A stretch of 64,000 nucleotides of DNA, from IMG/VR virus record IMGVR_UViG_3300030339_000017. One strand, given 5' to 3'. This stretch comes from an uncultured virus (IMG/VR IMGVR_UViG_3300030339_000017) (Duplodnaviria; Heunggongvirae; Uroviricota; Caudoviricetes). A program made the position numbers and the translations under genes. The notes beneath the pieces were generated by a model. That model was not told where the DNA came from. It made no database searches and worked only from the letters and a program-made list of their open reading frames with translations. Shown here one piece after another: positions 3,035-40,622 of this stretch (positions are counted from its first letter, which is position 1; each line of letters starts with the position of its first letter).

Positions 3035-5593
3035 TTATCTCTCCCCTGATGTTTTATTTTTTATAGCAGTTTTAGTTTTGAGTCTCTCTCTCTCCATTGC
3101 GGCCTTGTCTTTCATCTCTTGCAACTTCTTTTGGGTTTCGAGTTTTTTATTCTCTAATGCAATCTTTTTATTATCAATAGCATTTTTTGACTGGGCAATG
3201 ACGGCGTCAGATTCTATTTTCTTAGATTCTAGATTTCCTCTAAATTGGATTTCTCTTTCTTTTTGTTCTCTATCCATGGTAGCATTCATTTTATCTGCCT
3301 CATGTTGATCTCTCTGTATCGCTACATTCGCAATTTCCATAGGATCAGGTATTCCATCGTTATTCAAATCCATATCCTGTTGACCCTTATATGCATTAAG
3401 TTCGGCTACAGTAATCTTAGTCTCATTATCAGTATCAATCTTATATTTCTCAAGATCCATTTTTTGTTGGTCAACTGCAATCTGCTGTTGTTTAACTTCG
3501 TTTTGAGCTTGGATCTGTTGCATTTGATTCTGCTGTTCTTGCTCTTGCTGCTGTTGCTGAGTCTGTAATTGGATCTGTGCTATTTTAGATAACTTAGCTT
3601 TTATCTGAGTAACATTGTCTAATGTCATAATCTCAGCAATATCCAATAGGGTAGCTCCATTTTGCATGGCTGGTTGATATAGAGTTTTTAATTGTTCTAT
3701 ATTTTGTTGATCCTTAGTCGAGTCAGAGACGAATATATCGTAGTCTTCATAGAAGAAGTTTTCAGATAGATTCATAAATGTTCTAGTAGAGTCATTAAAT
3801 ACGTATTGTATATTCTTTCTTCCAGATCCTCTCCATGCTTCTTTTGCTGTGTTCAATAGTATTCTAAGAGCATTCTTTTTGGCCTGATTATGTATCCAAA
3901 ATAACGGTTCAGTAATATTAGCTGATTGAGTTACAGATCTCTCTACATTCCCAACCAATTCGCTAGAACTAATCGCACCTTGTCGCTGTTTACTGATACC
4001 TGATATCTCTGATATCATATCCTCTATCTTAGACATAATATTTATGTACTCACTTATCACATTAGACATAGTAAGATCTAGTGCAGATATTTGATTAAAC
4101 TGGCTGGCCTTTCCACCCTCTCTGCCTGGAATATCCCATCCATCCTCATATGGATTAACAAAGTTTACGCCAACAGAAGATAAATAATGCATCCATTTTG
4201 CTGGATCTATATTCATTGATTTAGGTATTTGGGTAATATCCATAGTAATTACCTTGCCTTTATCTCTAGCTAATGCTAACTCAAGCCTATACCATATGAT
4301 GATATACATATATTGCAGGGGCTTCATAATAGAGACTAACGATCTCGATTGAGAGTTAGTATTACTATATATAACTCCAGAGTATGGTAGTTTTTGAGAA
4401 TTAGGATTATCTGTAGATATTGCCTGATATTCTAAAGGTTGAATTCCAATATATAAATCCTCTCCAACTCTATAACCTTCCCATACTTCAATTACCCACT
4501 TCCAATCTATTGATAATTCCTCTCCTGTTACCATATAGTCCTCACTGACAACGACCTGTTCTGGTTCTCCGTTATCACTAATGATAGTTACAAAACCTAT
4601 CTTTTTATATGATTTCCATACAGCGTGCCACATATTAACTTGAGTAGCACTATTTACATTATTGCTACCAACAGTATCTACTACTCTCATGTCAATATGA
4701 TTATAATCCATAGCAGATGGAAAATCTTTTCCATAGGCACCAGTATTTGGATTGCTTCCAATTAATTCAAGAAGAGCATCTAAATCTTTTTCATTCATTT
4801 TATCAAACAGCCTATCATATACCTCTGTATATGCCATTCTCATTCTTCTTACGGCCCAATCTCCATCTTCTATAAATTCTAGATCTGGAGACCTATCATG
4901 ACCAAAATACATTGGATTTACTCTTTCCAGATTAGGCTCACCATTCTGTATGCCCGTATAGTATACTTCTTTACCAGCAATTATAGCGTCTTTCCATCCT
5001 TTATGAAACTCATGGTTTAATCCAAGCTTTTCTTTTAAGTAAGCCAAGGAGTGATATGCGCAATCTTCTGCTATATCCTTATAACTTTCCCCTATAAACG
5101 ATGCTATTTTTTCTGGTGGAGCGATTTCTCCTGATTGCAACTTTTCTTGAAACTGTTGAGCTGCTTCTGGAGTCATTCCTGCCATGAATTCTTCCATTAC
5201 ATAGTCAGTTATCATCTGTTTCATTTTGTCCTGAACGTCAGAAACAGCATCCTGGCTAGTTCTAATTACTCTGAAGTTAAATGGTCTTTTCGTCTCCTCT
5301 CCAAGAAGTAAATCAATTTTAGGTCTTATTATATTAAAGTCTTGAGGAGATGCAGGGAACCCATCCTCTTGAATAAATGGGTCAGTCACATATTTCAATT
5401 CCTCTACATGAAATACACTATTGTATAGATCATAATAGGATTGCATCTCTTCAAAATTAGTCCTTTCTGCTCCAGAAGGTACTGTCTCTCCCATACCAAT
5501 TATGTAATCGACACAGGCCTCTTTCCATTCATCAGTCTTCTTTTTAAATGGAAGTTTTTGAGGAGGGAACATTGTTGTAGCGTTATTTAGCAT
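3035..5593 (-). CDS. Portal protein
   Basis: 852 aa; FPPQKLPFKKK N-terminus, NIIRPKIDLLLGEE, Q-rich coiled-coil tail; adjacent to terminase. Confidence 0.9.
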   Translation of the reverse strand: MLNNATTMFPPQKLPFKKKTDEWKEACVDYIIGMGETVPSGAERTNFEEMQSYYDLYNSVFHVEELKYVTDPFIQEDGFPASPQDFNIIRPKIDLLLGEETKRPFNFRVIRTSQDAVSDVQDKMKQMITDYVMEEFMAGMTPEAAQQFQEKLQSGEIAPPEKIASFIGESYKDIAEDCAYHSLAYLKEKLGLNHEFHKGWKDAIIAGKEVYYTGIQNGEPNLERVNPMYFGHDRSPDLEFIEDGDWAVRRMRMAYTEVYDRLFDKMNEKDLDALLELIGSNPNTGAYGKDFPSAMDYNHIDMRVVDTVGSNNVNSATQVNMWHAVWKSYKKIGFVTIISDNGEPEQVVVSEDYMVTGEELSIDWKWVIEVWEGYRVGEDLYIGIQPLEYQAISTDNPNSQKLPYSGVIYSNTNSQSRSLVSIMKPLQYMYIIIWYRLELALARDKGKVITMDITQIPKSMNIDPAKWMHYLSSVGVNFVNPYEDGWDIPGREGGKASQFNQISALDLTMSNVISEYINIMSKIEDMISEISGISKQRQGAISSSELVGNVERSVTQSANITEPLFWIHNQAKKNALRILLNTAKEAWRGSGRKNIQYVFNDSTRTFMNLSENFFYEDYDIFVSDSTKDQQNIEQLKTLYQPAMQNGATLLDIAEIMTLDNVTQIKAKLSKIAQIQLQTQQQQQEQEQQNQMQQIQAQNEVKQQQIAVDQQKMDLEKYKIDTDNETKITVAELNAYKGQQDMDLNNDGIPDPMEIANVAIQRDQHEADKMNATMDREQKEREIQFRGNLESKKIESDAVIAQSKNAIDNKKIALENKKLETQKKLQEMKDKAAMERERLKTKTAIKNKTSGER

Positions 5594-5608: not shown

Positions 5609-7678
5609 TTAAATCCAATTAGTTTCGTGATCGCCAGTATCAATATCATTTAAACTACCATATGATCGGTTGAACCAATCTTTAGAGAATAAAGGCAAAT
5701 CAAATAAATCATTCTTTTTATAATCTTCTGTCTTCTTTTTTACATGAAGATTGTGTAATTGCTGTCTATATATCATTAGACATTGGAAGGCTCTTATTCT
5801 ATCAAAGTTGCCTTTATCATTATACTGTATTAATTCTTCTAGTAAAGGTTCTGATAATATCCTAGTAAGGTTTTTCTTGTTTGGGGCATATTCCTCATTT
5901 AACCATTCTTTTATCAATCCTTCACTATAGTCTATTATCTGGGTAGTCATGTGAATACCCTTTCTCCTTTGCACAGTAGACTTTCCAATTATATCAGATA
6001 TAATGTCTGGTTGATCAGCTAGAAGGTAGTCACAATGCTTTTGAGTAAAATATGGGAATATACCCTTTCTCTCGTTTTCGTATAAGAGTCTAGCGTTATA
6101 ATACTGCAAAAGCGTTCTTACGTTCTCATAATACTCCTCTGCAGTATCTGGCCTACCAGTATATTCTGCAACTATAATATCATAATACTCCTCAAAGTTC
6201 TGAAATCTTTTGTATATAAATGTAGACCCCAGTGATTGCGTTCCGGCCTTATCATGATCATACGGATCGCAACCAGCTATGTATAATTGTCCAGATGTAT
6301 CTTTACTGGGATGTTCCCATATTACTATAGATCCCTCGTGTTTATCGTCTCTACCCAATGGATACTTAGTTATGTCACCATTCTTTTTTATAGTCCACAT
6401 TAATTCTCCATTTACATAACTTAGATCTCCGACTTGTTTATACGCCTGAAGTTTTTTATTAGTCCTAATAGCCGCCAACTGAGCCATCAATTCCTTCTTT
6501 GGAAATATATTACCAGTAAGTTCTAATACGGCTTCCTGTGGAGTAAGTGGATTCTCAGCAATATATCTATCTATTGCCCTGGTATCAGAAGCTCCATCTA
6601 TTACTTTCTGTCTTTCAGATAATGCATATTCGATAGCTTTTGATTTTATACTATTTCCATTCTTATCCATATATAGACGCTTTCCGTCTAATCCTAGTAC
6701 AGACATGTTGGCATATACAGGGACAAAGAATGCACATTGACTTGCATCAGCTCCATCATCCCATACATTTGAGAATGATTTTACATTATAACCAGATGGG
6801 TTATAGAACATTTCTTTAAGTCCATCAAACCTACTCCCCTCATCTCCTCCAGTACCAAACGCAATCATTAATCCAAACGCAACACCGTCTTCTTCTACAG
6901 AAGGTCTAGCTATTTGCCATGCCTGTAATATATCCTTAAAAGACCCAGCCTCTTCCCATAAAATCAATTTACCACGCTTTCCACGAGCTCTATTTGGGTC
7001 GTTCTTTAGTGTAACTCCAATGATTTCAGATTTGTATCCAATTTCAATATCATTGCCCATTTCATCTTTAGTAAGGATAGACGCCCTTCTGTGAATGGCC
7101 TTATTTACTGCCTGTCTTTTCTTTGACCATGCAGTATGCTCATCTATGAAGGCCATTAAGTCCCATGCCTTAGTTAATAGTCCGTCCCTAACCAAATACT
7201 CAGTCTCAGATGCAATTGCATATGATTTAGAATCGGGAATAAGAAAGAAGTTTCTACATAACATGGAACTCCCTTTGAAGGAATACCCAGCACCACGTTT
7301 CTTTAGAACGACCATATGCTTTCCTTCCTCTTCTGCTTCATCTATCGCACTAAAATAATAGTAGTCATAGTCATAGAAGTCTGGAAACTCTCTAGTCTTC
7401 TCTCTCCTTTTCTTTATTTTCCCGTGCCTATCTTTATATGTAAATTCTACAAGCCTTAATATAGGGCAATAATTTAAGTAAAAGTAGTTATATCCGCTTA
7501 TCCAATCACCATCCTCTGACTCGTACCCATTAATACATCTTTCCTCTTCTTTGTGCCAATAGTCAAGATATTCCGTAGTCCCTTGAGGCGCGAAACAGTA
7601 AAGGCCATGCTCCTGGTAGTGGAGCGCAGCCTTTCGAAACTTATTTGAATTTGTTACCTTCTTCCTAAAGTCGATCAT
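5609..7678 (-). CDS. terL: Terminase large subunit
   Basis: Walker A-like KKRGAGYS, Walker B LILWEEAG, FGTGG, nuclease motifs GCDPYDHD and GNFDR. Confidence 0.93.
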   Translation of the reverse strand: MIDFRKKVTNSNKFRKAALHYQEHGLYCFAPQGTTEYLDYWHKEEERCINGYESEDGDWISGYNYFYLNYCPILRLVEFTYKDRHGKIKKRREKTREFPDFYDYDYYYFSAIDEAEEEGKHMVVLKKRGAGYSFKGSSMLCRNFFLIPDSKSYAIASETEYLVRDGLLTKAWDLMAFIDEHTAWSKKRQAVNKAIHRRASILTKDEMGNDIEIGYKSEIIGVTLKNDPNRARGKRGKLILWEEAGSFKDILQAWQIARPSVEEDGVAFGLMIAFGTGGDEGSRFDGLKEMFYNPSGYNVKSFSNVWDDGADASQCAFFVPVYANMSVLGLDGKRLYMDKNGNSIKSKAIEYALSERQKVIDGASDTRAIDRYIAENPLTPQEAVLELTGNIFPKKELMAQLAAIRTNKKLQAYKQVGDLSYVNGELMWTIKKNGDITKYPLGRDDKHEGSIVIWEHPSKDTSGQLYIAGCDPYDHDKAGTQSLGSTFIYKRFQNFEEYYDIIVAEYTGRPDTAEEYYENVRTLLQYYNARLLYENERKGIFPYFTQKHCDYLLADQPDIISDIIGKSTVQRRKGIHMTTQIIDYSEGLIKEWLNEEYAPNKKNLTRILSEPLLEELIQYNDKGNFDRIRAFQCLMIYRQQLHNLHVKKKTEDYKKNDLFDLPLFSKDWFNRSYGSLNDIDTGDHETNWI

Positions 7679-22635: not shown

Positions 22636-22709
22636 TGGAGGATCATCTAATTTGGTTAGGATGTAACTCTGATAAAGTTATAAACCCGGTTCGAGGCCGG
22701 GCCCTCCAA
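22636..22709 (+). tRNA. tRNA-Ile(GAT)
   Basis: TGGAGGA/CCCTCCA acceptor (one mismatch), TAACT-CTGATAA-AGTTA, CCCGG-TTCGAGG-CCGGG; no encoded CCA. Confidence 0.8.
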
Positions 22710-22967
22710 CAAATAAAAATAAGAGTGCGTATGGAATAACAATAATTCAGGACGCAGAGCGAAAAGCCGTAAGTCGGGAGCGATATCTCATGGGTACATA
22801 TCTGAAAAATACACTCTTATTCTCTCAAAAAAATCAAGACTATGCGTATATGTCAGCCTAGAACAAGGTCGCACTTATTCGGAAGTTAATAGTAGAATGT
22901 GTTCAAATCTATTATAAACATAGAATGAAAAGATTTGTCTTGATTTTCACTTTTAAATTATAAATAT

Positions 22968-24535: not shown

Positions 24536-25027
24536 ATGAATGATGTAGAAAAAGAGATTTGTCTTGAGTTGATAACTCATGCAAATAACAAAACAGAAGT
24601 AAAAAATGTAATGAATGAAACATTCAAAGCATTAAACAAAAAAGAATTGAATGTATTTATAAATGAAAGTTGGAAAAAAAGAAAACTGACAAGTAAGATA
24701 TCAATGTCTAATCTAGAATATAGAGAGAAAAGAGATTTATTGCAATCGCTACTTATTAAAAAAGCGTTTGGAGAAATTAAGCATATTTATGTAACAATAA
24801 ACAAGTGCTTAAGCAAAGATACTCCATTCGATATGTATAAGTCAATGATTGGAACTGGTAATCTTTATGTTCAAAGGAGGGAATTACAAAGAGGATCTGA
24901 AGTAGAGTTATTGAGATTCGATGAAAATGGAATCAAAATTCTAGTTGAAGATCTAAATTGGAAAGGATATGAATTCTATTTCTTAGTGTACGATATTAAT
25001 TGTCGTAATTACATAAGAATAGAATAA
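24536..25027 (+). CDS. Hypothetical protein
   Basis: 163 aa ORF. Confidence 0.65.
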   Translation: MNDVEKEICLELITHANNKTEVKNVMNETFKALNKKELNVFINESWKKRKLTSKISMSNLEYREKRDLLQSLLIKKAFGEIKHIYVTINKCLSKDTPFDMYKSMIGTGNLYVQRRELQRGSEVELLRFDENGIKILVEDLNWKGYEFYFLVYDINCRNYIRIE

Positions 25028-25030
25028 AGA

Positions 25031-25097
25031 AGTACGGCCCGCTAGGTCGTTTGATTCGTCAGGAAGACCGGGCTAGCATATGCCCGCACCTCCACCA
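25031..25097 (+). ncRNA. ssrA: Permuted tmRNA, acceptor piece
   Basis: GAA-GAC, T-arm CGGGC/GCCCG, then CACCTCC-A-CCA; pairs with GGGGGTG at 25203 giving G3:U70. Confidence 0.8.
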
Positions 25098-25100
25098 AAA

Positions 25101-25189
25101 CTATCATGTAATACGTAATGGCAAAATCGATTATGTCATCCATAGCAATATGGTTGTATCGTTGCGGGTTTGAGTCCCGCCATGGTAGC
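25101..25189 (+). ncRNA. tRNA-like element in the tmRNA intervening segment
   Basis: 8-bp CTATCATG/CATGGTAG stem, T-arm GCGGG-TTTGAGT-CCCGC, central arm ending in ccata-GCAA-tatgg; no clear anticodon. Confidence 0.65.
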
Positions 25190-25202
25190 ATTAAATTAAT
25201 AC

Positions 25203-25357
25203 GGGGGTGACCAGCATTGATTCGGACAAGATGATAACGAATAGGACTGCACAATGTCTATAACAGGCAATAAAACAATCCAAATCAACAACTACGTAGG
25301 CCTTGTAGCCTAATAGCCTAGAATGTACCTATCAGGCACGTGAGCAAATGCCGCACG
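25203..25357 (+). ncRNA. ssrA: Permuted tmRNA, coding piece; tag (A)GNKTIQINNYVGLVA
   Basis: 5' GGGGGTGACCAGCATTGA; ATAACA-GGC resume context at 25266; TAA TAG stops from 25311; terminal pseudoknot ggca/tgcc plus cgtg/cacg. Confidence 0.8.
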
Positions 25358-25367
25358 TTATATTCAA

Positions 25368-26102
25368 TTGTTACCTGATAGGGTTTTATTATTAATCAAT
25401 AGTAATATGGGAAAAGAACCAAGAGAATTTATTAAAAACCTAGAAATAGGAAAGACTTATATACTAGTTTGGTTTGATTTCATATTTATTGGAATATTGA
25501 AAGATAAAACCTGGAGAAATGAGTCCTATGAAGTGCTAGTTTTCGAAAGTGAACAGCAATACATATCAAATAGAAATGAAGTATCAAAAATGCTTCATAA
25601 AGAAGGAGGTAAAACTCAATTATATTGCACTAATTCTATTATATTCGAAAATAATATAATAGATGGAAAGTACTATGATTGGTTTATGTCAAAAATGAAG
25701 TCAGTAAATATCAGTAAAGTTAATGGCAAAAATACTATAGTCAATACAGGAATAGCAAAAAGTATGATTATAAAGGATTTATCAAAGATTTTACAGAGAA
25801 GAGAACTGTCTTTATTTGAAGATATATTAAATAGTAAAGGCGTTATACTAGTCCAAAACTATCAAAAAAAATACAGAGACATCGTTTCGTCTCAAGAAGA
25901 CCAAATGCCATTTAATGTAGAATTTCCAATTAAAAAATGCGAAATGTATCCAGAATTAGATGCAGAAGTAGAATTAACCATCAATGGACAAACAATGTCT
26001 TCATCAATGAAATATGCTCATGAGTTTTTTAACGAATGGAAAGGACATATTAATGCTGGATTAGTAATTTTTAAAATGAAAAAATTATGCCAAAAAAAAT
26101 AA
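25368..26102 (+). CDS. Hypothetical protein
   Basis: ORF; real start probably at MGKEPR. Confidence 0.65.
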   Translation: MLPDRVLLLINSNMGKEPREFIKNLEIGKTYILVWFDFIFIGILKDKTWRNESYEVLVFESEQQYISNRNEVSKMLHKEGGKTQLYCTNSIIFENNIIDGKYYDWFMSKMKSVNISKVNGKNTIVNTGIAKSMIIKDLSKILQRRELSLFEDILNSKGVILVQNYQKKYRDIVSSQEDQMPFNVEFPIKKCEMYPELDAEVELTINGQTMSSSMKYAHEFFNEWKGHINAGLVIFKMKKLCQKK

Positions 26103-27444: not shown

Positions 27445-27518
27445 GGACCGATAATTCAACTGAATAGAATCGTGCCCTTCTATGGCGCTTGTTGGGGGTT
27501 TGAGTCCCTCTCGGTTCA
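27445..27518 (+). tRNA. tRNA-Arg(TCT)
   Basis: GGACCGA/TCGGTTC, ATTC/GAAT D-stem, GTGCC-CTTCTAT-GGCGC, GGGGG-TTTGAGT-CCCTC. Confidence 0.88.
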
Positions 27519-27533
27519 CTAAATTAATTTAAT

Positions 27534-36313: not shown

Positions 36314-36880
36314 ATGCTGATAGAAATAGATTTGGAAGAGGCGAGACGTCTCAAAATCAACATGAATCAGTTCGTATTAATAAGTTTATTAATGTCAAAT
36401 AGCGATATCAAATCGCTGCTGGATGTTATCCCCATCAGCGAAGATGACGTAAATAAACTTATATCAAAAGATATATTAACAAAAGAATCAGTTTTTGATT
36501 CGAAAGATTTTTCAAAATTAATCATAAATGACGACTTTAAAAATAAAGTAAAAGTCAAGGATTTCTTTACTGAATTCTTTGATGCTTACCCAGCTTCAGT
36601 AACACGTACTGATGGACTTAAAGACTATTTACGGGGAGATATATCTCGTTGTAGAAAGTATTATACTAAGGAAGTTGGAAATATTCGAAGCAAACATGAC
36701 CACATGATGGAGTGTTTAAAATTCGAAGTAGAAGCAAGAAAAAGAGCAGGATCATTAGGATACATGAAAAGAATGTCCAAATGGCTACTTTCAGAAGAAT
36801 GGCTTCTTTATGATGAATTTATGAAAGATAAGAAGATACAAAAACAAGCAGGAACAATATATGGAACAGATATCGAGTAA
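36314..36880 (+). CDS. Putative replisome organizer / helicase loader
   Basis: FFTEFFDAYP...YMKRMSKWL..EEW; overlaps DnaB start. Confidence 0.6.
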   Translation: MLIEIDLEEARRLKINMNQFVLISLLMSNSDIKSLLDVIPISEDDVNKLISKDILTKESVFDSKDFSKLIINDDFKNKVKVKDFFTEFFDAYPASVTRTDGLKDYLRGDISRCRKYYTKEVGNIRSKHDHMMECLKFEVEARKRAGSLGYMKRMSKWLLSEEWLLYDEFMKDKKIQKQAGTIYGTDIE

Positions 36881-38118
36881 GAAAGTACTTGGATATAGGC
36901 ACATATCAACTGCTACAAATGAAATTGTTAATTATATTCAAGATAGACGTAAAAAACGAGTAAAATCACTTGCTACACGATGGCCTAAGTTTAATAGACT
37001 AGCCATGGGTGGTATAGAGCCAAATGTTATATATACTATAGCAGGAGTCTCTGGAAGTGGTAAATCTTCGTTTGTTAATACATTAGAGACTGATTTAATA
37101 GATCTAAATCCAGATGAAGACATTGTCATACTTAGTTTCAGTTTTGAAATGCTAAGCTCAAGACAGGTCGGAAGAAAACTATCATATAAGCTAAAAAAGA
37201 CTACTTCTGAATTATACAGTGCCTCCGAAAAGGGACTTGTTACAGAAGAAGAATATGCAGATGTAGAAAAGGAGGCGAAATCCATAATGAACTATCCAGT
37301 TTATTATGTCGATACTCCTGGGAACGTGCAAGAAATAGCAAATACAATAAAATTCTTTCAAGATACATTTGCAAAAAACAAATGGCTTGTAGTTATCATA
37401 GATCATACCTTATTGATTAAGGGAAGTGGAACTGGTAATGAAAGAGAAATCATAGTGGATTTAGAAAAAGAACTAATAGGAGCAAAGAAAGTTGGTAAAA
37501 CTTCTATTATACAAATATCACAAATGAATAGAAATATTGAATCTCCCGAGAGACTGAATAATAATTCATTGCATTATCCTCAGCGCAGCGATTTGTCATC
37601 AAGCGATGCAGTATTTCAAGGATCTGACTATGTAATAGTAATACATAGACCAGAAGTTCTTGGTTTGCTATCTTATGGATATAATAATCTTCCTGTAAAG
37701 GATTGCATATACCTTCATTTTCTAAATAAATGGAACTTTGCTGCGTAATCAGCATCGAAAATTTGGTGAATTGCTGGAAAATCCTGAAGAGGACAATCAG
37801 CAGCCAAGACTTATTTTAAATGGATAAGTAAGGTTCAACGACTAGATATTGAAACTGTTAAATACAGAATATATATATATCCACGAGCGCCAAACACCCT
37901 ACATGGGTGATGATATAGTCTGAACTGCAAATATAACAAAAGAAATTGCAGATATATAGGATAAAGAGCCTATATGATAACAAATTTGAAAAAATAGAGA
38001 AGGCGATATAAAGATCCTCAAGTTTATAAATGATTTAAAATATAATAATCTAAAAGAACCAGAAGAAGAGGATGAAAAGACAATAGGCCAACAATCATTA
38101 GAATTTGAAAAAAAATAA
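36861..38118 (+). CDS. dnaB: DnaB-like replicative helicase, spliced (36861-37723 + 37989-38118, 330 aa)
   Basis: GVSGSGKS, IIDH, SQMNR, SDL; splicing restores YLHFL-KNREG. Confidence 0.9.
37724..37988 (+). mobile_element. Group I intron without ORF (265 nt) in dnaB
   Basis: Exon ends in U with P1 (ttct/ggaa); core aattgctggaaa, aatcagcag, ttcaacgactaga, gatatagtc; terminal G. Confidence 0.9.
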
Positions 38119-38122
38119 AATT

Positions 38123-38656
38123 ATGGATAACAAAAATAAATTTGCAGTTAAACTGCCATCATTTCTTAACGACATTAATTTATTGTATAAAACTAGTTTA
38201 GTAGATACAATTATTGATAAGTATCCACATTTAACTATGGCCGGTATTGATACCCCATACGAAACATCACGTGGAAATAAGATTAATGGTGTTGAAAATG
38301 CAAAACCAAACGATTATATTACCTTTGGAACCTCTCGTACACATGATGTGAATTGGATGAGCAAAGGAGAAGAAGATACATTTAATTATTTGAATCGTAC
38401 TGGAGTTCCTGTATATGATCTGCAAAAAGATTATAGTAAGGTAATGTACAATTTGGATAAATTTGCGACCGCAAACAAACCAAAAGAAACTTGTAATTGT
38501 GATTATTGCAATTATAATAAAGTACAGAAATTTGATGCTTTTACAAAGGTTGGATATACTATTATTCCAACACCAAAAGTGACTCCAACATATTGCTATG
38601 GATATTTTAATCCATATTATACAGTAAGAGTGACTACAATTAGCATTAAATTTTAA
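38123..38656 (+). CDS. Hypothetical protein
   Basis: ATG at 38123 within track ORF 38105-38656. Confidence 0.65.
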   Translation: MDNKNKFAVKLPSFLNDINLLYKTSLVDTIIDKYPHLTMAGIDTPYETSRGNKINGVENAKPNDYITFGTSRTHDVNWMSKGEEDTFNYLNRTGVPVYDLQKDYSKVMYNLDKFATANKPKETCNCDYCNYNKVQKFDAFTKVGYTIIPTPKVTPTYCYGYFNPYYTVRVTTISIKF

Positions 38657-38747: not shown

Positions 38748-40622
38748 ATGATAACATTACCGATTATTAAAAGCTCGCCAAAAGCTTCTAATCCTCGATT
38801 CTTAGTTTATTTCGGTAAACCTAAATCTGGAAAGACAACTCTAGCATCTACTTTAGAAAATAATTTAATTATTGATTTAGAAGATGGTACTGATTTCTTA
38901 TCAGCATTAGTATTAAAAGCAACAAATATAACAGAATTATCTGAAATAGCAGCAGCTATAAAACAAGCAAATACACAGGCAGGAAAATTCGTTTATAACT
39001 ATATAACTATAGATAATGGAACGAAATTAGAAGAAATGTCTATGTCTCTAGCATTAAAATTATACAGAGAAACTCCACAGGGGAAGAACTATACTGAAGA
39101 TGTTAGAAAATTGCCAAACGGTAAAGACCAGCGCCGTTGTAAAACCAACCTAATTGCGGGAATACTCAATGTTTATATGTACTACTAATTAATAGTGATA
39201 TATAATTAGGACCTATTGTAATGGATAGGGTATAGTAAAAACTATATAAATAAGAGGGAATCCGCAGCGAAGTCACTTACGTAAATATATTACAACAAGA
39301 CAAACAAAATCTTGATAGATACGTTTACATAAGTGATATGCTCATCGACTATCGAAACCACGCAGTAGCGGAAGGGAGTAGAGTAGAGTGTATCTAGTAA
39401 ATACATTCGAAACGGTTGGATTATGAAATTTGAAAAAAGTAAAGAAATAGAAGAAATATCATGTGTATATGGAATCTATAATATAAAAACAAAAAAATGG
39501 TATATTGGATCTACCATAAATCTAAAGAATAGAATAAACAGACATTTATTTGAATTAAAAAAAGAAAAACACCACTCAAATAAATTACAAAGATCATTTA
39601 TTCTCTATGGTCCTAAGAATTTTGAATTATTTATATTGAAAAATATAGAAAAAGATAAAGTCAAGGACTTAAGCAAAGAAGAAGATTTATATATAAAGAA
39701 ATTAGATTCAGTAGAAAATGGATATAACATATCACTAAATACCAACAACCCACATATTGTGAAATTATCAAAAATACAAATTGATAAAGCCGCAAATTCA
39801 CATAAAATATCAATTATAGCATTAGATTTTAATGGCAATTTTATAAAAAGATATTCAAGTATAACAGAGGCGTCAAAAGAATTAAATACTAGTTCTTCTA
39901 ACATAAGTCAATGTTGCAAAAATAATGGGAATATAACATGTAAAGGGTTTTTATTTTTATATGAAAAAGATTACAATGTAAATAAAAAATACAAAAGGGA
40001 ACGTTATGAAATGAATAAATCTCATAAAAATAAAATAATTTATAAAGCACAAACTCAAAAAAAAGCAAGAAAAATAAATTGTATAGATAATGACTTAAAT
40101 TTCTTATCAATATCAGAATTTGAAAATTATTTTAAAATGAGAAAAGACTCATTAAGAGAAAAAATTAAAATAACGAAAAATGAAATGTATTTTACATGGA
40201 ATTCTATGAATTTTATATTATCAAAAAGTAATAGTAAGATATAGTCAGTTCAGGCTGGATGGCTTTTCGTAAGAGAAGCTTTCTTTAAGATTATAGATAT
40301 ATTTAAAACACTATCACCAACATTGATATTAATATGTCACGTCAAAGACGCTATGATTAATAAAGATGGAAAAGAGTTAAGCGAAATGTCTATAGATTTG
40401 TCAGGTAAGACTGCAAGATTAGTTGCTGCAGATGCAGATGCAATTGGTTTTGTATATAGAAAAAAGAATCAAACGATTATGAATTTTAACGGTGGAGGAG
40501 ACTTTATCGTAGAAGCAAGGCAAGAACATTTAAGAGGAAAAGAGATAGTTGTTGCAGAATCTAATGAAGATAATGTGATTACTACTTATTGGGAAAGAAT
40601 TTTCATACCAAGTAATGAATAA
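38748..40622 (+). CDS. Sak4-like AAA ATPase, spliced (38748-39122 + 40254-40622, 247 aa)
   Basis: FGKPKSGKTT, IDLEDG, ITID; splicing gives LPNG-AGWLFVRE...ILICH...DLSGK...DAIG. Confidence 0.85.
39302..39327 (+). promoter_or_regulatory. Intron-internal ECF-type promoter
   Basis: AAACaaaatcttgatagataCGTTTA, about 100 nt upstream of endonuclease ATG. Confidence 0.6.
39423..40244 (+). CDS. GIY-YIG homing endonuclease with NUMOD1-like region
   Basis: CVYGIYN...WYIGST.NL..R...H; GYN; YSSITEASKEL..SSSNISQCC. Confidence 0.92.
   Translation: MKFEKSKEIEEISCVYGIYNIKTKKWYIGSTINLKNRINRHLFELKKEKHHSNKLQRSFILYGPKNFELFILKNIEKDKVKDLSKEEDLYIKKLDSVENGYNISLNTNNPHIVKLSKIQIDKAANSHKISIIALDFNGNFIKRYSSITEASKELNTSSSNISQCCKNNGNITCKGFLFLYEKDYNVNKKYKRERYEMNKSHKNKIIYKAQTQKKARKINCIDNDLNFLSISEFENYFKMRKDSLREKIKITKNEMYFTWNSMNFILSKSNSKI

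Follow-up and report, generated by a model that had tools for sequence, protein, structure and literature searches.

A predicted two-piece tmRNA gene in a crAss-like phage from peat: a divergent permuted variant with an altered tRNA elbow and a nested tRNA-shaped RNA

Transfer-messenger RNA (tmRNA) is the RNA that frees stalled ribosomes, and crAss-like phages are among the most abundant viruses of Bacteroidota. We analyzed a 64,000-nucleotide stretch of DNA from an uncultured virus (IMG/VR IMGVR_UViG_3300030339_000017; the window hereafter) that raises a question about both: does the locus at 25031-25393 on the plus strand, where the 3' half of a tRNA-like domain lies upstream of its 5' half, encode a working tmRNA, and where would such a gene have come from? 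Sequence comparison points, with a probability of about 0.8, to a functional two-piece tmRNA gene belonging to a crAss-like phage lineage, with descent from the one-piece form found in Bacteroidota hosts. The basis for this reading is the anatomy of the locus, its conservation and covariation, its homology to annotated phage and host tmRNAs, and the lack of SmpB in the relatives searched. The gene is a permuted tmRNA gene of a kind already labelled in databases and listed in the literature, here in a divergent variant that standard finders miss. This copy is set apart from its relatives by a rebuilt elbow, an encoded CCA, a terminator-like 3' end and a nested tRNA-shaped RNA.

Anatomy of the permuted locus

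Inspection of the locus (Table 1) reveals every element that a preliminary description, made from the sequence alone, had named: the upstream 3' half, the acceptor stem, the G3:U70 pair and the tag frame. The two acceptor strands pair at seven of seven positions (GGGGGTG/CACCTCC), the third pair being G25205:T25091, or G3:U70, and the T-arm stacks straight onto the acceptor 3' strand; the locus thereby carries the 7-base-pair (bp) acceptor stem, discriminator and CCA end of a tmRNA. The order is that of the permuted form, with a CCA-ended acceptor piece, a 105-base segment and then a coding piece from 25203, and the same order is found in the related sequences L114 and L320 and in 9 other phage sequences. 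The 105 bases between the encoded CCA and G1 would be removed on maturation. Predicted mature pieces measure ~67 nucleotides (nt) for the acceptor piece and ~190 nt for the coding piece (~260 nt in total), where 67 and 155 nt had been proposed. The gene end previously placed at 25357 falls inside a 3' hairpin that precedes the T-run at 25384-87, so the end is better set near 25393; 25031 is a provisional 5' end for the acceptor piece.

A relaxed-threshold search of 24900-25500 with the Rfam model RF04321 (tmRNA_permuted) aligned 25036-25313 over all 213 model positions, the acceptor piece included, with a score of 34.5 bits and an E-value of 2.6e-5 for the 601 bases searched. Among the three lineage models RF01849-RF01851, alpha_tmRNA reached 19.9 bits (cut-off 50) and no match came from the remaining two; the locus does not belong by descent to the alphaproteobacterial, betaproteobacterial or cyanobacterial two-piece lineages.

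The coding piece carries ATAGG at 25241-45, a small hairpin and then ATAACA ahead of the resume codon. The tag has the resume codon, open frame, hydrophobic and alanine-containing end and stop expected of a tmRNA tag; it is the phage's own, as had been proposed, and its frame is kept in L114, where the tag reads GEKTIQINNYVGLMSA. Every change within the core shared by the two phages (KTIQINNYVGL), in Asn, Tyr, Val and Leu codons, is synonymous, and a 3-base difference in length leaves the frame intact. Tag ends in the family (...NYVGLVA, ...DYTRIAA, ...DYTRLSA) resemble the host end ...NYALAA.

Downstream of the stops, an outer stem (25328-36 with 25374-82, 9 bp) encloses an inner hairpin (25338-42 with 25354-58) and is followed by the T-run. 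In a consensus fold of this domain with L114, 2 of 22 pairs differ on both sides yet still pair; the two belong to the outer stem, which shows one further wobble change. A consensus terminator scanner listed no plus-strand site, the loop being longer than the scanner's limit; we describe the 3' end of this copy as terminator-like.

Table 1. Parts of the tmRNA locus (all on the plus strand) and their identity to L114, the one diverged relative of this variant
Feature	Position	Description	Identity to L114
Acceptor piece	25031..25097	5' tail, 3'-side strands of helix 2, T-arm, acceptor 3' strand, A, CCA	84%
Helix-2 strands of acceptor piece	25035..25051	P2c CGGCC 25035-39; P2b TCGTT 25047-51	
P2a strand	25059..25065	TC 25059-60 and GAA 25063-65; partners GA 25225-26 and TTC 25221-23	
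T-arm	25069..25086	5-bp stem CGGGC 25069-73 / GCCCG 25082-86; 8-nt loop TAGCATAT 25074-81	
Acceptor 3' strand	25087-93	CACCTCC, then discriminator A 25094 and encoded CCA 25095-97, read from the sequence	
Intervening segment	25098..25202	AAAC 25098-25101, nested tRNA-like element 25102-25188, second spacer 25189-25202	50% (second spacer)
Nested tRNA-like element	25102..25188	87 nt; cloverleaf-like consensus fold with L114	87%
Nested element, acceptor stem	25102-08 / 25181-87	7 bp; discriminator G	
Nested element, arms		7-bp arm with loop GGCAAAAT; 5-bp arm with GNRA loop; T-arm GCGGG-TTTGAGT-CCCGC	
Coding piece, 5' part	25203..25265	Acceptor 5' strand, D-loop analogue ACCAG..., P2a, P2b, ATAGG, P2c, hairpin, ATAACA	78%
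Acceptor 5' strand	25203-09	GGGGGTG; 105 bases lie between the encoded CCA and this strand	
Tag reading frame	25266..25316	GNKTIQINNYVGLVA; GGC 25266 to GCC 25310, then TAA TAG	73%
Coding piece, 3' domain	25317..25393	CCTAG, GTAC, 9-bp outer stem, inner hairpin, G TTTT ATTATT	74%
DNA after T-run			42%

Relatives, covariation and origin

The window belongs to a crAss-like phage. Its portal protein (3035-5593, minus strand; PHROG E 1e-157) and large terminase (5609-7678, minus strand; E 1e-146) are both of this type; the terminase matches 160 phage records, mostly crAss-like phages of Bacteroides, Flavobacterium and Cellulophaga, and is 68.7% identical (tblastn) to that of cr118_1 (Crassvirales, Suoliviridae), the closest named relative. 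A blastn search of the locus against 50,697 phage records found no match. The flanking proteins (24536-25027 and 25407-26102), as IMG/VR baits, led back to the window phage alone, at 100% identity, and G001 also proved to be that phage. Using the terminase, we collected 80 related IMG/VR contigs and searched the whole records of 50 with RF04321. Eight scored above the cut-off (50-55 bits) and four more were clear homologues on inspection (41.5, 41.5, 30 and 25.6 bits); two weaker matches, L096 (20.8 bits) and L097 (19.9 bits), resemble coding sequence and were set aside. Homologous permuted genes are thus present in 12 of 50 related records with arrangement and break point in common, which does not fit the proposal that the permutation arose in this phage. 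ARAGORN called a permuted tmRNA in 2 of 14 of these loci.

Nor is the gene new to crAss-like phages, as had been supposed. A blastn search of GenBank phages with one homologue matched 16 records, all crAss-like or unannotated gut phage contigs, five of which annotate the site as 'transfer-messenger RNA, SsrA' (RefSeq); the feature tables of cr125_1 and cr115_1 carry a tmRNA annotation. The window locus shares TAGGTC, GAATAGG, P2b/P2c and the break point with this RefSeq-annotated permuted family. Supplementary file 2 of PMC9004378 lists cr115_1, cr114_1, cr273_1 and cr125_1 as 'Permuted', the string 'crAss' occurring 14 times in it, and the same study reports 53 two-piece phage tmRNAs found by ARAGORN among 18,146 genomes, in conflict with the earlier view that phage tmRNAs are one-piece; it also notes that marine phages such as Melnitz carry copies of two-piece tmRNAs. 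PMC11915505 tabulates 79 phage tmRNAs. Our full-text literature searches returned no paper describing a crAss-like phage tmRNA, the matches examined citing ARAGORN or mentioning host SsrA only; in the literature searched it appears only as a database label and a table row.

A DNA search of 30 terminase-related records yielded one true relative of the window's variant. This is L114, from a complete genome of 93.9 kb that has terminal repeats (G014); over 335 bases it matches the locus at 81% identity. Where the window has G:C at acceptor pair 7, L114 has A:U; the C:G and G:C of T-stem pairs 1 and 2 are G:C and A:U there, and in P2a, which RF04321 also aligns, an A:U pair of the window corresponds to G:C, a further compensatory change. 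Acceptor pairing and tag frame are conserved in this relative. Conservation is concentrated in the RNA parts, at 84-87% for the acceptor piece and nested element versus 42-50% for the spacer and flank.

To count pairs more widely, we used fixed anchors to extract the helices of 18 sequences, of which 12 are permuted phage genes, 2 are one-piece phage genes and 4 come from hosts; a 12-sequence MAFFT alignment had misaligned the acceptor 3' strand and G1 between types. In 18 of 18 sequences, the seven acceptor and five T-stem pairs are all standard, and G3:U70 is invariant. Acceptor pairs 5-7 occur as three or four pair types and the T-stem pairs, all five of them, as two to four. The preliminary description of a circularly permuted gene with G3:U70 is borne out.

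Helix 2 required more revision. TAGGTC (25043-48) is invariant across the crAss-like family, and we defined P2b as the 5 bases from its TC against the 5 bases before the likewise invariant ATAGG. In the window, P2b is TCGTT with AACGA 25236-40, paired at 5 of 5 positions; all 12 permuted sequences pair along its whole length, using 5 different combinations, with three pair types at pairs 3-5. P2c pairs CGGCC with GACTG 25245-49, at 4 of 5 positions in the window and at 5 of 5 in 10 of the 12. Of the links previously drawn between the pieces, TTC/GAA corresponds to P2a and stands. The ATTCGT/ACGAAT register is possible; it overlaps the family-supported TCGTT/AACGA and is invariant in L114, so it has no covariation to support it. 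A GGTC/GACT pairing is possible too, is likewise invariant and overlaps the family-supported register. CCTAG (25317-21) and GTAC (25325-28) could pair with the acceptor-piece tail; for the CTAGG/CCTAG part of this, the support consists of three C-to-T changes by which G-U pairs are retained, and an extension of the 3' hairpin within the coding piece competes with it.

A host origin is suggested by a 16-base motif from the D-loop/P2a region of the gut-phage type, which occurs in more than 120 stretches of species-representative genomes, mostly Bacteroidota. ARAGORN, run on 23 of these loci, called 12 as one-piece tmRNAs of ~390 nt starting 9 bases before the motif, with tags such as GENNYALAA, GNNNFALAA and GETSYAFAA; the other 11 include chance matches outside Bacteroidota and three Bacteroidales loci that look one-piece by eye. 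A 26-base run is also common to the acceptor piece of the gut-phage type and the 3' end of a Bacteroidaceae tmRNA. Because the family's tRNA-like domain matches one-piece Bacteroidota tmRNA, we take the crAss-like phage family to descend from that gene and its permuted form to be of separate origin, in agreement with the preliminary claim of independence from the alphaproteobacterial, betaproteobacterial and cyanobacterial lineages.

Several side observations concern the relatives. The closest named relative, cr118_1 (L326, NC_055872.1, ~700-770), retains only a decayed, unannotated acceptor piece, TAGGTT and half a T-arm without its partner strand. In gut crAss-like relatives, the permuted tmRNA adjoins a RAGATH-7-associated RNA (133-140 bits) and a RAGATH-9 RNA (122 bits), at sites that include L084 1109-1236, L088 1373-1494 and 73-218, L091 1808-1929 and 3097-3242, and L094 2817-2962, among others; the RAGATH-7-associated RNA ends 6 bases ahead of the tmRNA in L088 and L091, and an Rfam scan of the window found neither RNA. 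About 45 bases after the stop, other family members carry a tRNA (tRNA-Ile in three) or a mini acceptor/T-arm hairpin (L084 1821-1893; L089-L091 1379-1453; L320 17-85; L124, or cr125_1, ~1885-1930; L327, or cr115_1, ~760-800), and their 3' end may be set by tRNA processing. In L084-type genes, the gut-phage type, the internal loop between P2a and P2b reads GGATGAA on both strands, a symmetric purine-rich loop that might form a defined motif.

Altered elbow, nested RNA and phage context

The tRNA elbow is thought to be important for SmpB binding, and in the window it departs from the usual form: the T-loop TAGCATAT, noted as atypical from the start, has 8 nt in place of 7, and the D-loop analogue reads ACCAG and contains no GG. 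A 7-nt T-loop and a GG-containing D-loop analogue are usual, not defining, features of tmRNA.

Searches with the T-arm recovered the window phage, L114, L320/L322, L279/L319 and L324. The short pattern GGCTAGCATATGCC occurred in 72 stretches of IMG/VR, with the acceptor strand beside it in only 3; a longer pattern matched 7 stretches of the Joint Genome Institute (JGI) metagenomes, 6 of which are tmRNA genes, and one metagenome match (L325) was discarded as chance. L320/L322 is a further permuted variant (RF04321, 43.5 bits; tag GKMLINDYTRLSA) that joins the altered tRNA corner to a helix-2 body of gut type (TTGAC...TAGGTCAT, GAATAGGTCAAT). L279/L319 (RF00023, 29.7 bits) is a one-piece tmRNA from a crAss-like genome, complete at 97.6 kb, with a 33%-identical terminase, and L324 is a one-piece tmRNA that scores 71 bits with RF00023, above the cut-off, and has the same T-loop variant. 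The loop TAGCATAT sits on five different, fully paired T-stems (window, L114, L320, L279 and L324). All five genes encode ACCA and read A(A/C)CAG after the acceptor strand, versus xxTGG in the other phage and host genes. The window T-arm pattern, with one mismatch allowed, was absent from 401 sampled genomes of the phylum of a Bacteroidales metagenome-assembled genome. We read the elbow as a phage-borne variant of the tRNA corner that has moved between gene bodies.

Contigs in metagenome runs X7, X15 and X21 match the tag and 3' domain of the window (25203-25450) at 95% or above and carry a different tRNA-like domain or a short spacer upstream, which suggests recombination within the tmRNA gene. 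The tRNA downstream of the L320-type tmRNA (L320 16-85, minus strand; L322 771-839, plus strand) scores 47.6 bits on the Rfam tRNA model and is reported by ARAGORN as 'tRNA-???' with a two-base anticodon (aa).

The preliminary description had overlooked a conserved tRNA-shaped RNA within the 105-base spacer. Its T-arm is canonical and abuts its own acceptor 3' strand, and its arm loops have 4 and 10 nt. It is not a tRNA by the usual marks, having no anticodon loop and no ARAGORN call, and an Rfam search of 25096-25202 alone gave no tRNA at E up to 10 and no Y-RNA-like or ribozyme match. A 17-base motif of the element occurs 11 times in IMG/VR; eight occurrences are the same element, six of them in other phage contigs as free-standing genes, several beside tRNAs. 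Across seven distinct members, 96.9% of cells are paired, a level that none of 500 shuffles attained and that compares with 32-46% in slid controls, and 12 of 24 pairs are changed on both sides, including 6 of 7 acceptor pairs. L320 has a tRNA-shaped insert of different sequence, in which the acceptor stem begins at the base next to the tmRNA CCA. In the rest of the family the spacers are unrelated and range from 17 to 166 bases, so we take the nested insert to be exchangeable cargo and not a required part. RNase P and RNase Z would be expected to act on its acceptor/T-arm minihelix and in this way to help free the two tmRNA pieces.

In one free-standing member (L332 392-474) the acceptor stem is GGGTGAG/CTCATCC and includes G3:U70; this member matches the tmRNA model weakly (19.7 bits) and looks, from its sequence, like a mini-tmRNA consisting of the tRNA domain only. 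The nested element (25164-25180) and the phage's tRNA-Arg(TCT) (27445-27519) carry the same unusual T-loop, TTTGAGT, in which U takes the place of the C56 typical of tRNAs.

Taken together, these comparisons lead us to a tentative and rather doubtful extension of the argument. The crAss-like tmRNA may be a mosaic exchanged in modules, in which permutation, reversal or module swapping took place inside phages rather than once in a host, since the same tRNA corner is found on one-piece and two-piece genes. The spacer would then be a slot, occupied in the window by a member of a free-standing phage RNA family of tRNA shape, and a single transcript would be cut by tRNA enzymes into three RNAs, with processing of the passenger aiding release of the tmRNA pieces.

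The tmRNA locus lies in a plus-strand gene block between two small open reading frames (ORFs) without assigned function, and its same-strand neighbours include tRNA-Ile (22636-22710) and tRNA-Arg (27445-27519). SmpB (PF01668) was not found in the 5 phage records searched, 3 of them complete, so host SmpB would have to serve. DNA of the window is present in peat metagenome runs (24 rows, 23 studies), with 6 as candidate sources. The contigs of four runs compared with the locus show no RNA ends, and one run, possibly of RNA, covers only 25265-25450. Elsewhere in the window, a group I intron (37713-37951, plus strand; Rfam 80.2 bits) begins at the 3' end of a DnaB-like helicase ORF, with a GIY-YIG-type homing endonuclease ORF ~1.5 kb downstream of it; ORFs in this area span 36861-37748, 38123-38656 and 39423-40244.

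Alternative explanations, proposed function and comparison with known systems

A number of results weigh against a functional tmRNA. ARAGORN made no tmRNA call on the window and Rfam reported nothing at the locus at gathering thresholds; the full-length RF04321 match lies below that model's gathering score of 47, and the model finds nothing in L114, the closest relative, at E up to 1. L114 is also the only diverged relative found for the exact variant, in which P2c, the tail pairing and the small pre-tag hairpin are therefore candidate pairings, and the last tag residues differ between the two phages (LVA in the window, MSA in L114). The 8-nt T-loop lacks the usual T-loop sequence and the D-loop analogue lacks the GG present in host and other phage copies, such that binding to host SmpB, EF-Tu and processing enzymes is not assured, and no pseudoknot is evident 5' of the tag.

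One alternative is chance resemblance, a small protein gene or an assembly artefact. ORFs of 30-70 codons do overlap the locus, and one 40-codon frame is still open in L114, where it has no start codon; the 70-codon minus-strand ORF across the locus meets two stops there. Rearrangement during assembly, which the preliminary description had raised, is excluded because the same gene order is seen in identical contigs from other assemblies (L001-L003, L321 and L323) and in the 81%-identical L114. With a full-length structural match at E 2.6e-5 and the same order in independent assemblies and in a family of phages, these explanations are refuted as far as sequence comparison goes, and we hold them to be extremely improbable.

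A decaying relic, namely a copy of a once-working tmRNA that has lost its function and carries an odd T-loop and D-loop, would explain the altered elbow and the scores below model cut-offs, and the broken, unannotated acceptor piece of cr118_1 is a true example of such decay. In the window, by contrast, compensatory changes preserve all helices at 19% divergence and synonymous changes preserve the tag frame, and conservation is much higher in the RNA parts than in the spacer and flank. The odd T-loop moreover recurs on five different fully paired T-stems, in one-piece and two-piece genes, and is for this reason better seen as a selected variant than as decay; a relic is very unlikely. We also regard as unlikely a tRNA-like decoy or regulator, which host factors would charge or bind but which would mainly compete with or replace the host tmRNA, or alter protein fate through its own tag. 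Such a role has a precedent in the tRNA-domain-only form of phage DS6A, reported to inhibit host tmRNA (PMC11915505). It would also suit phage tags that are longer than and different from those of the host, and with no SmpB found in the five phage records, the phage RNA must compete for that of the host. A pure decoy, however, would not need the complete resume context, conserved tag frame and double stop seen here, and the C-terminal tag residues resemble those of host tags.

We therefore return to a functional two-piece tmRNA. Its transcription, the sites at which it is cleaved, its charging, its role in ribosome rescue and what becomes of the tagged proteins are all inferred, as follows. 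The locus would be transcribed with the surrounding plus-strand block, transcription ending at the hairpin and T-run near 25383-93, and the 25031-25097 half would pair with the half from 25203 through the acceptor stem, P2a, P2b and P2c. Host tRNA-processing enzymes would cut 5' of G25203 and at the nested element (25102-25188), and trimming of the 4-nt AAAC tail would expose the encoded CCA. Three RNAs would result: the acceptor piece (~67 nt), the coding piece (~190 nt) and, set free, the tRNA-shaped RNA (~87 nt). G3:U70 would direct alanine charging by host alanyl-tRNA synthetase, host SmpB and EF-Tu would deliver the RNA to stalled ribosomes, and translation would resume at GGC 25266, adding (A)GNKTIQINNYVGLVA, a tag with a host-like end.

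If so, the two-piece form has arisen once more in this family, separately and from a one-piece gene of Bacteroidota, and the phage RNA, at ~260 of ~390 nt or about two thirds of the length of the host RNA, would be a natural minimal tmRNA. The window copy would indicate that the tRNA elbow can be rebuilt and that an excised spacer is able to carry another structured RNA. A variant that escapes standard finders also implies that phage tmRNAs are under-counted.

Comparison with known systems places the locus closest to the tmRNAs of gut crAss-like phages (Crassvirales, Suoliviridae; for example cr125_1, NC_055900.1 87913-88362, and cr115_1, NC_055898.1 42525-42886). Gene order, break point, the invariant TAGGTC of the acceptor piece and GAATAGG of the coding piece, P2a/P2b/P2c, G3:U70 and an A/G-rich context before the GGC resume codon are shared, as are tags of 13-16 residues with ...Y..(R/G)(I/L).A ends. 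The window differs in its 8-nt T-loop (TTCGACT/TTCGAGT in the gut type), ACCAG in place of xxTGG after the acceptor strand, an encoded CCA, CGGCC/GACTG in place of TTGAC/GTCAA at P2c, an 11-12-base insertion before the resume codon, and a terminator-like hairpin at its end, whereas in the others a tRNA or tRNA-like minihelix follows the gene; it also comes from peat, not gut. With the one-piece phage genes L279/L319 and L324 it shares the T-loop TAGCATAT, GGGGGTG/CACCTCC acceptor, ACCA tail and A(A/C)CAG; these genes are not permuted, measure ~390-425 nt, and have long tags and a different body.

The two-piece tmRNAs of Alphaproteobacteria, a betaproteobacterial lineage and cyanobacteria (RF01849-RF01851, merged as RF04321, a model built on these lineages; PMC11915505) likewise have an upstream CCA-ended acceptor piece, an intervening segment and a coding piece, with a tRNA-like domain made of two RNAs. 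Unlike them, the window gene appears to be of separate origin, is much shorter, has no evident pseudoknots and reaches only 19.9 bits on alpha_tmRNA. The one-piece tmRNA of Bacteroidota (for example L154 442-835, tag GNNNFALAA) shares with it G3:U70, P2a, a GGC resume codon followed by AAT, and a similar tag end (NYALAA in the host, NYVGLVA in the window), and shares the 16- and 26-base runs with related phage types; it differs in its four-pseudoknot size, canonical T-loop and CCA that is not encoded. The nested RNA, finally, has a parallel in one permuted tmRNA with an intact tRNA-Ala in its intervening sequence, called unique in PMC11915505. In both, a tRNA-shaped RNA lies inside the segment that is, or in the window would be, removed on maturation; the window insert, by contrast, has no anticodon loop, is not called as a tRNA, and belongs to a family that is free-standing in other phages.

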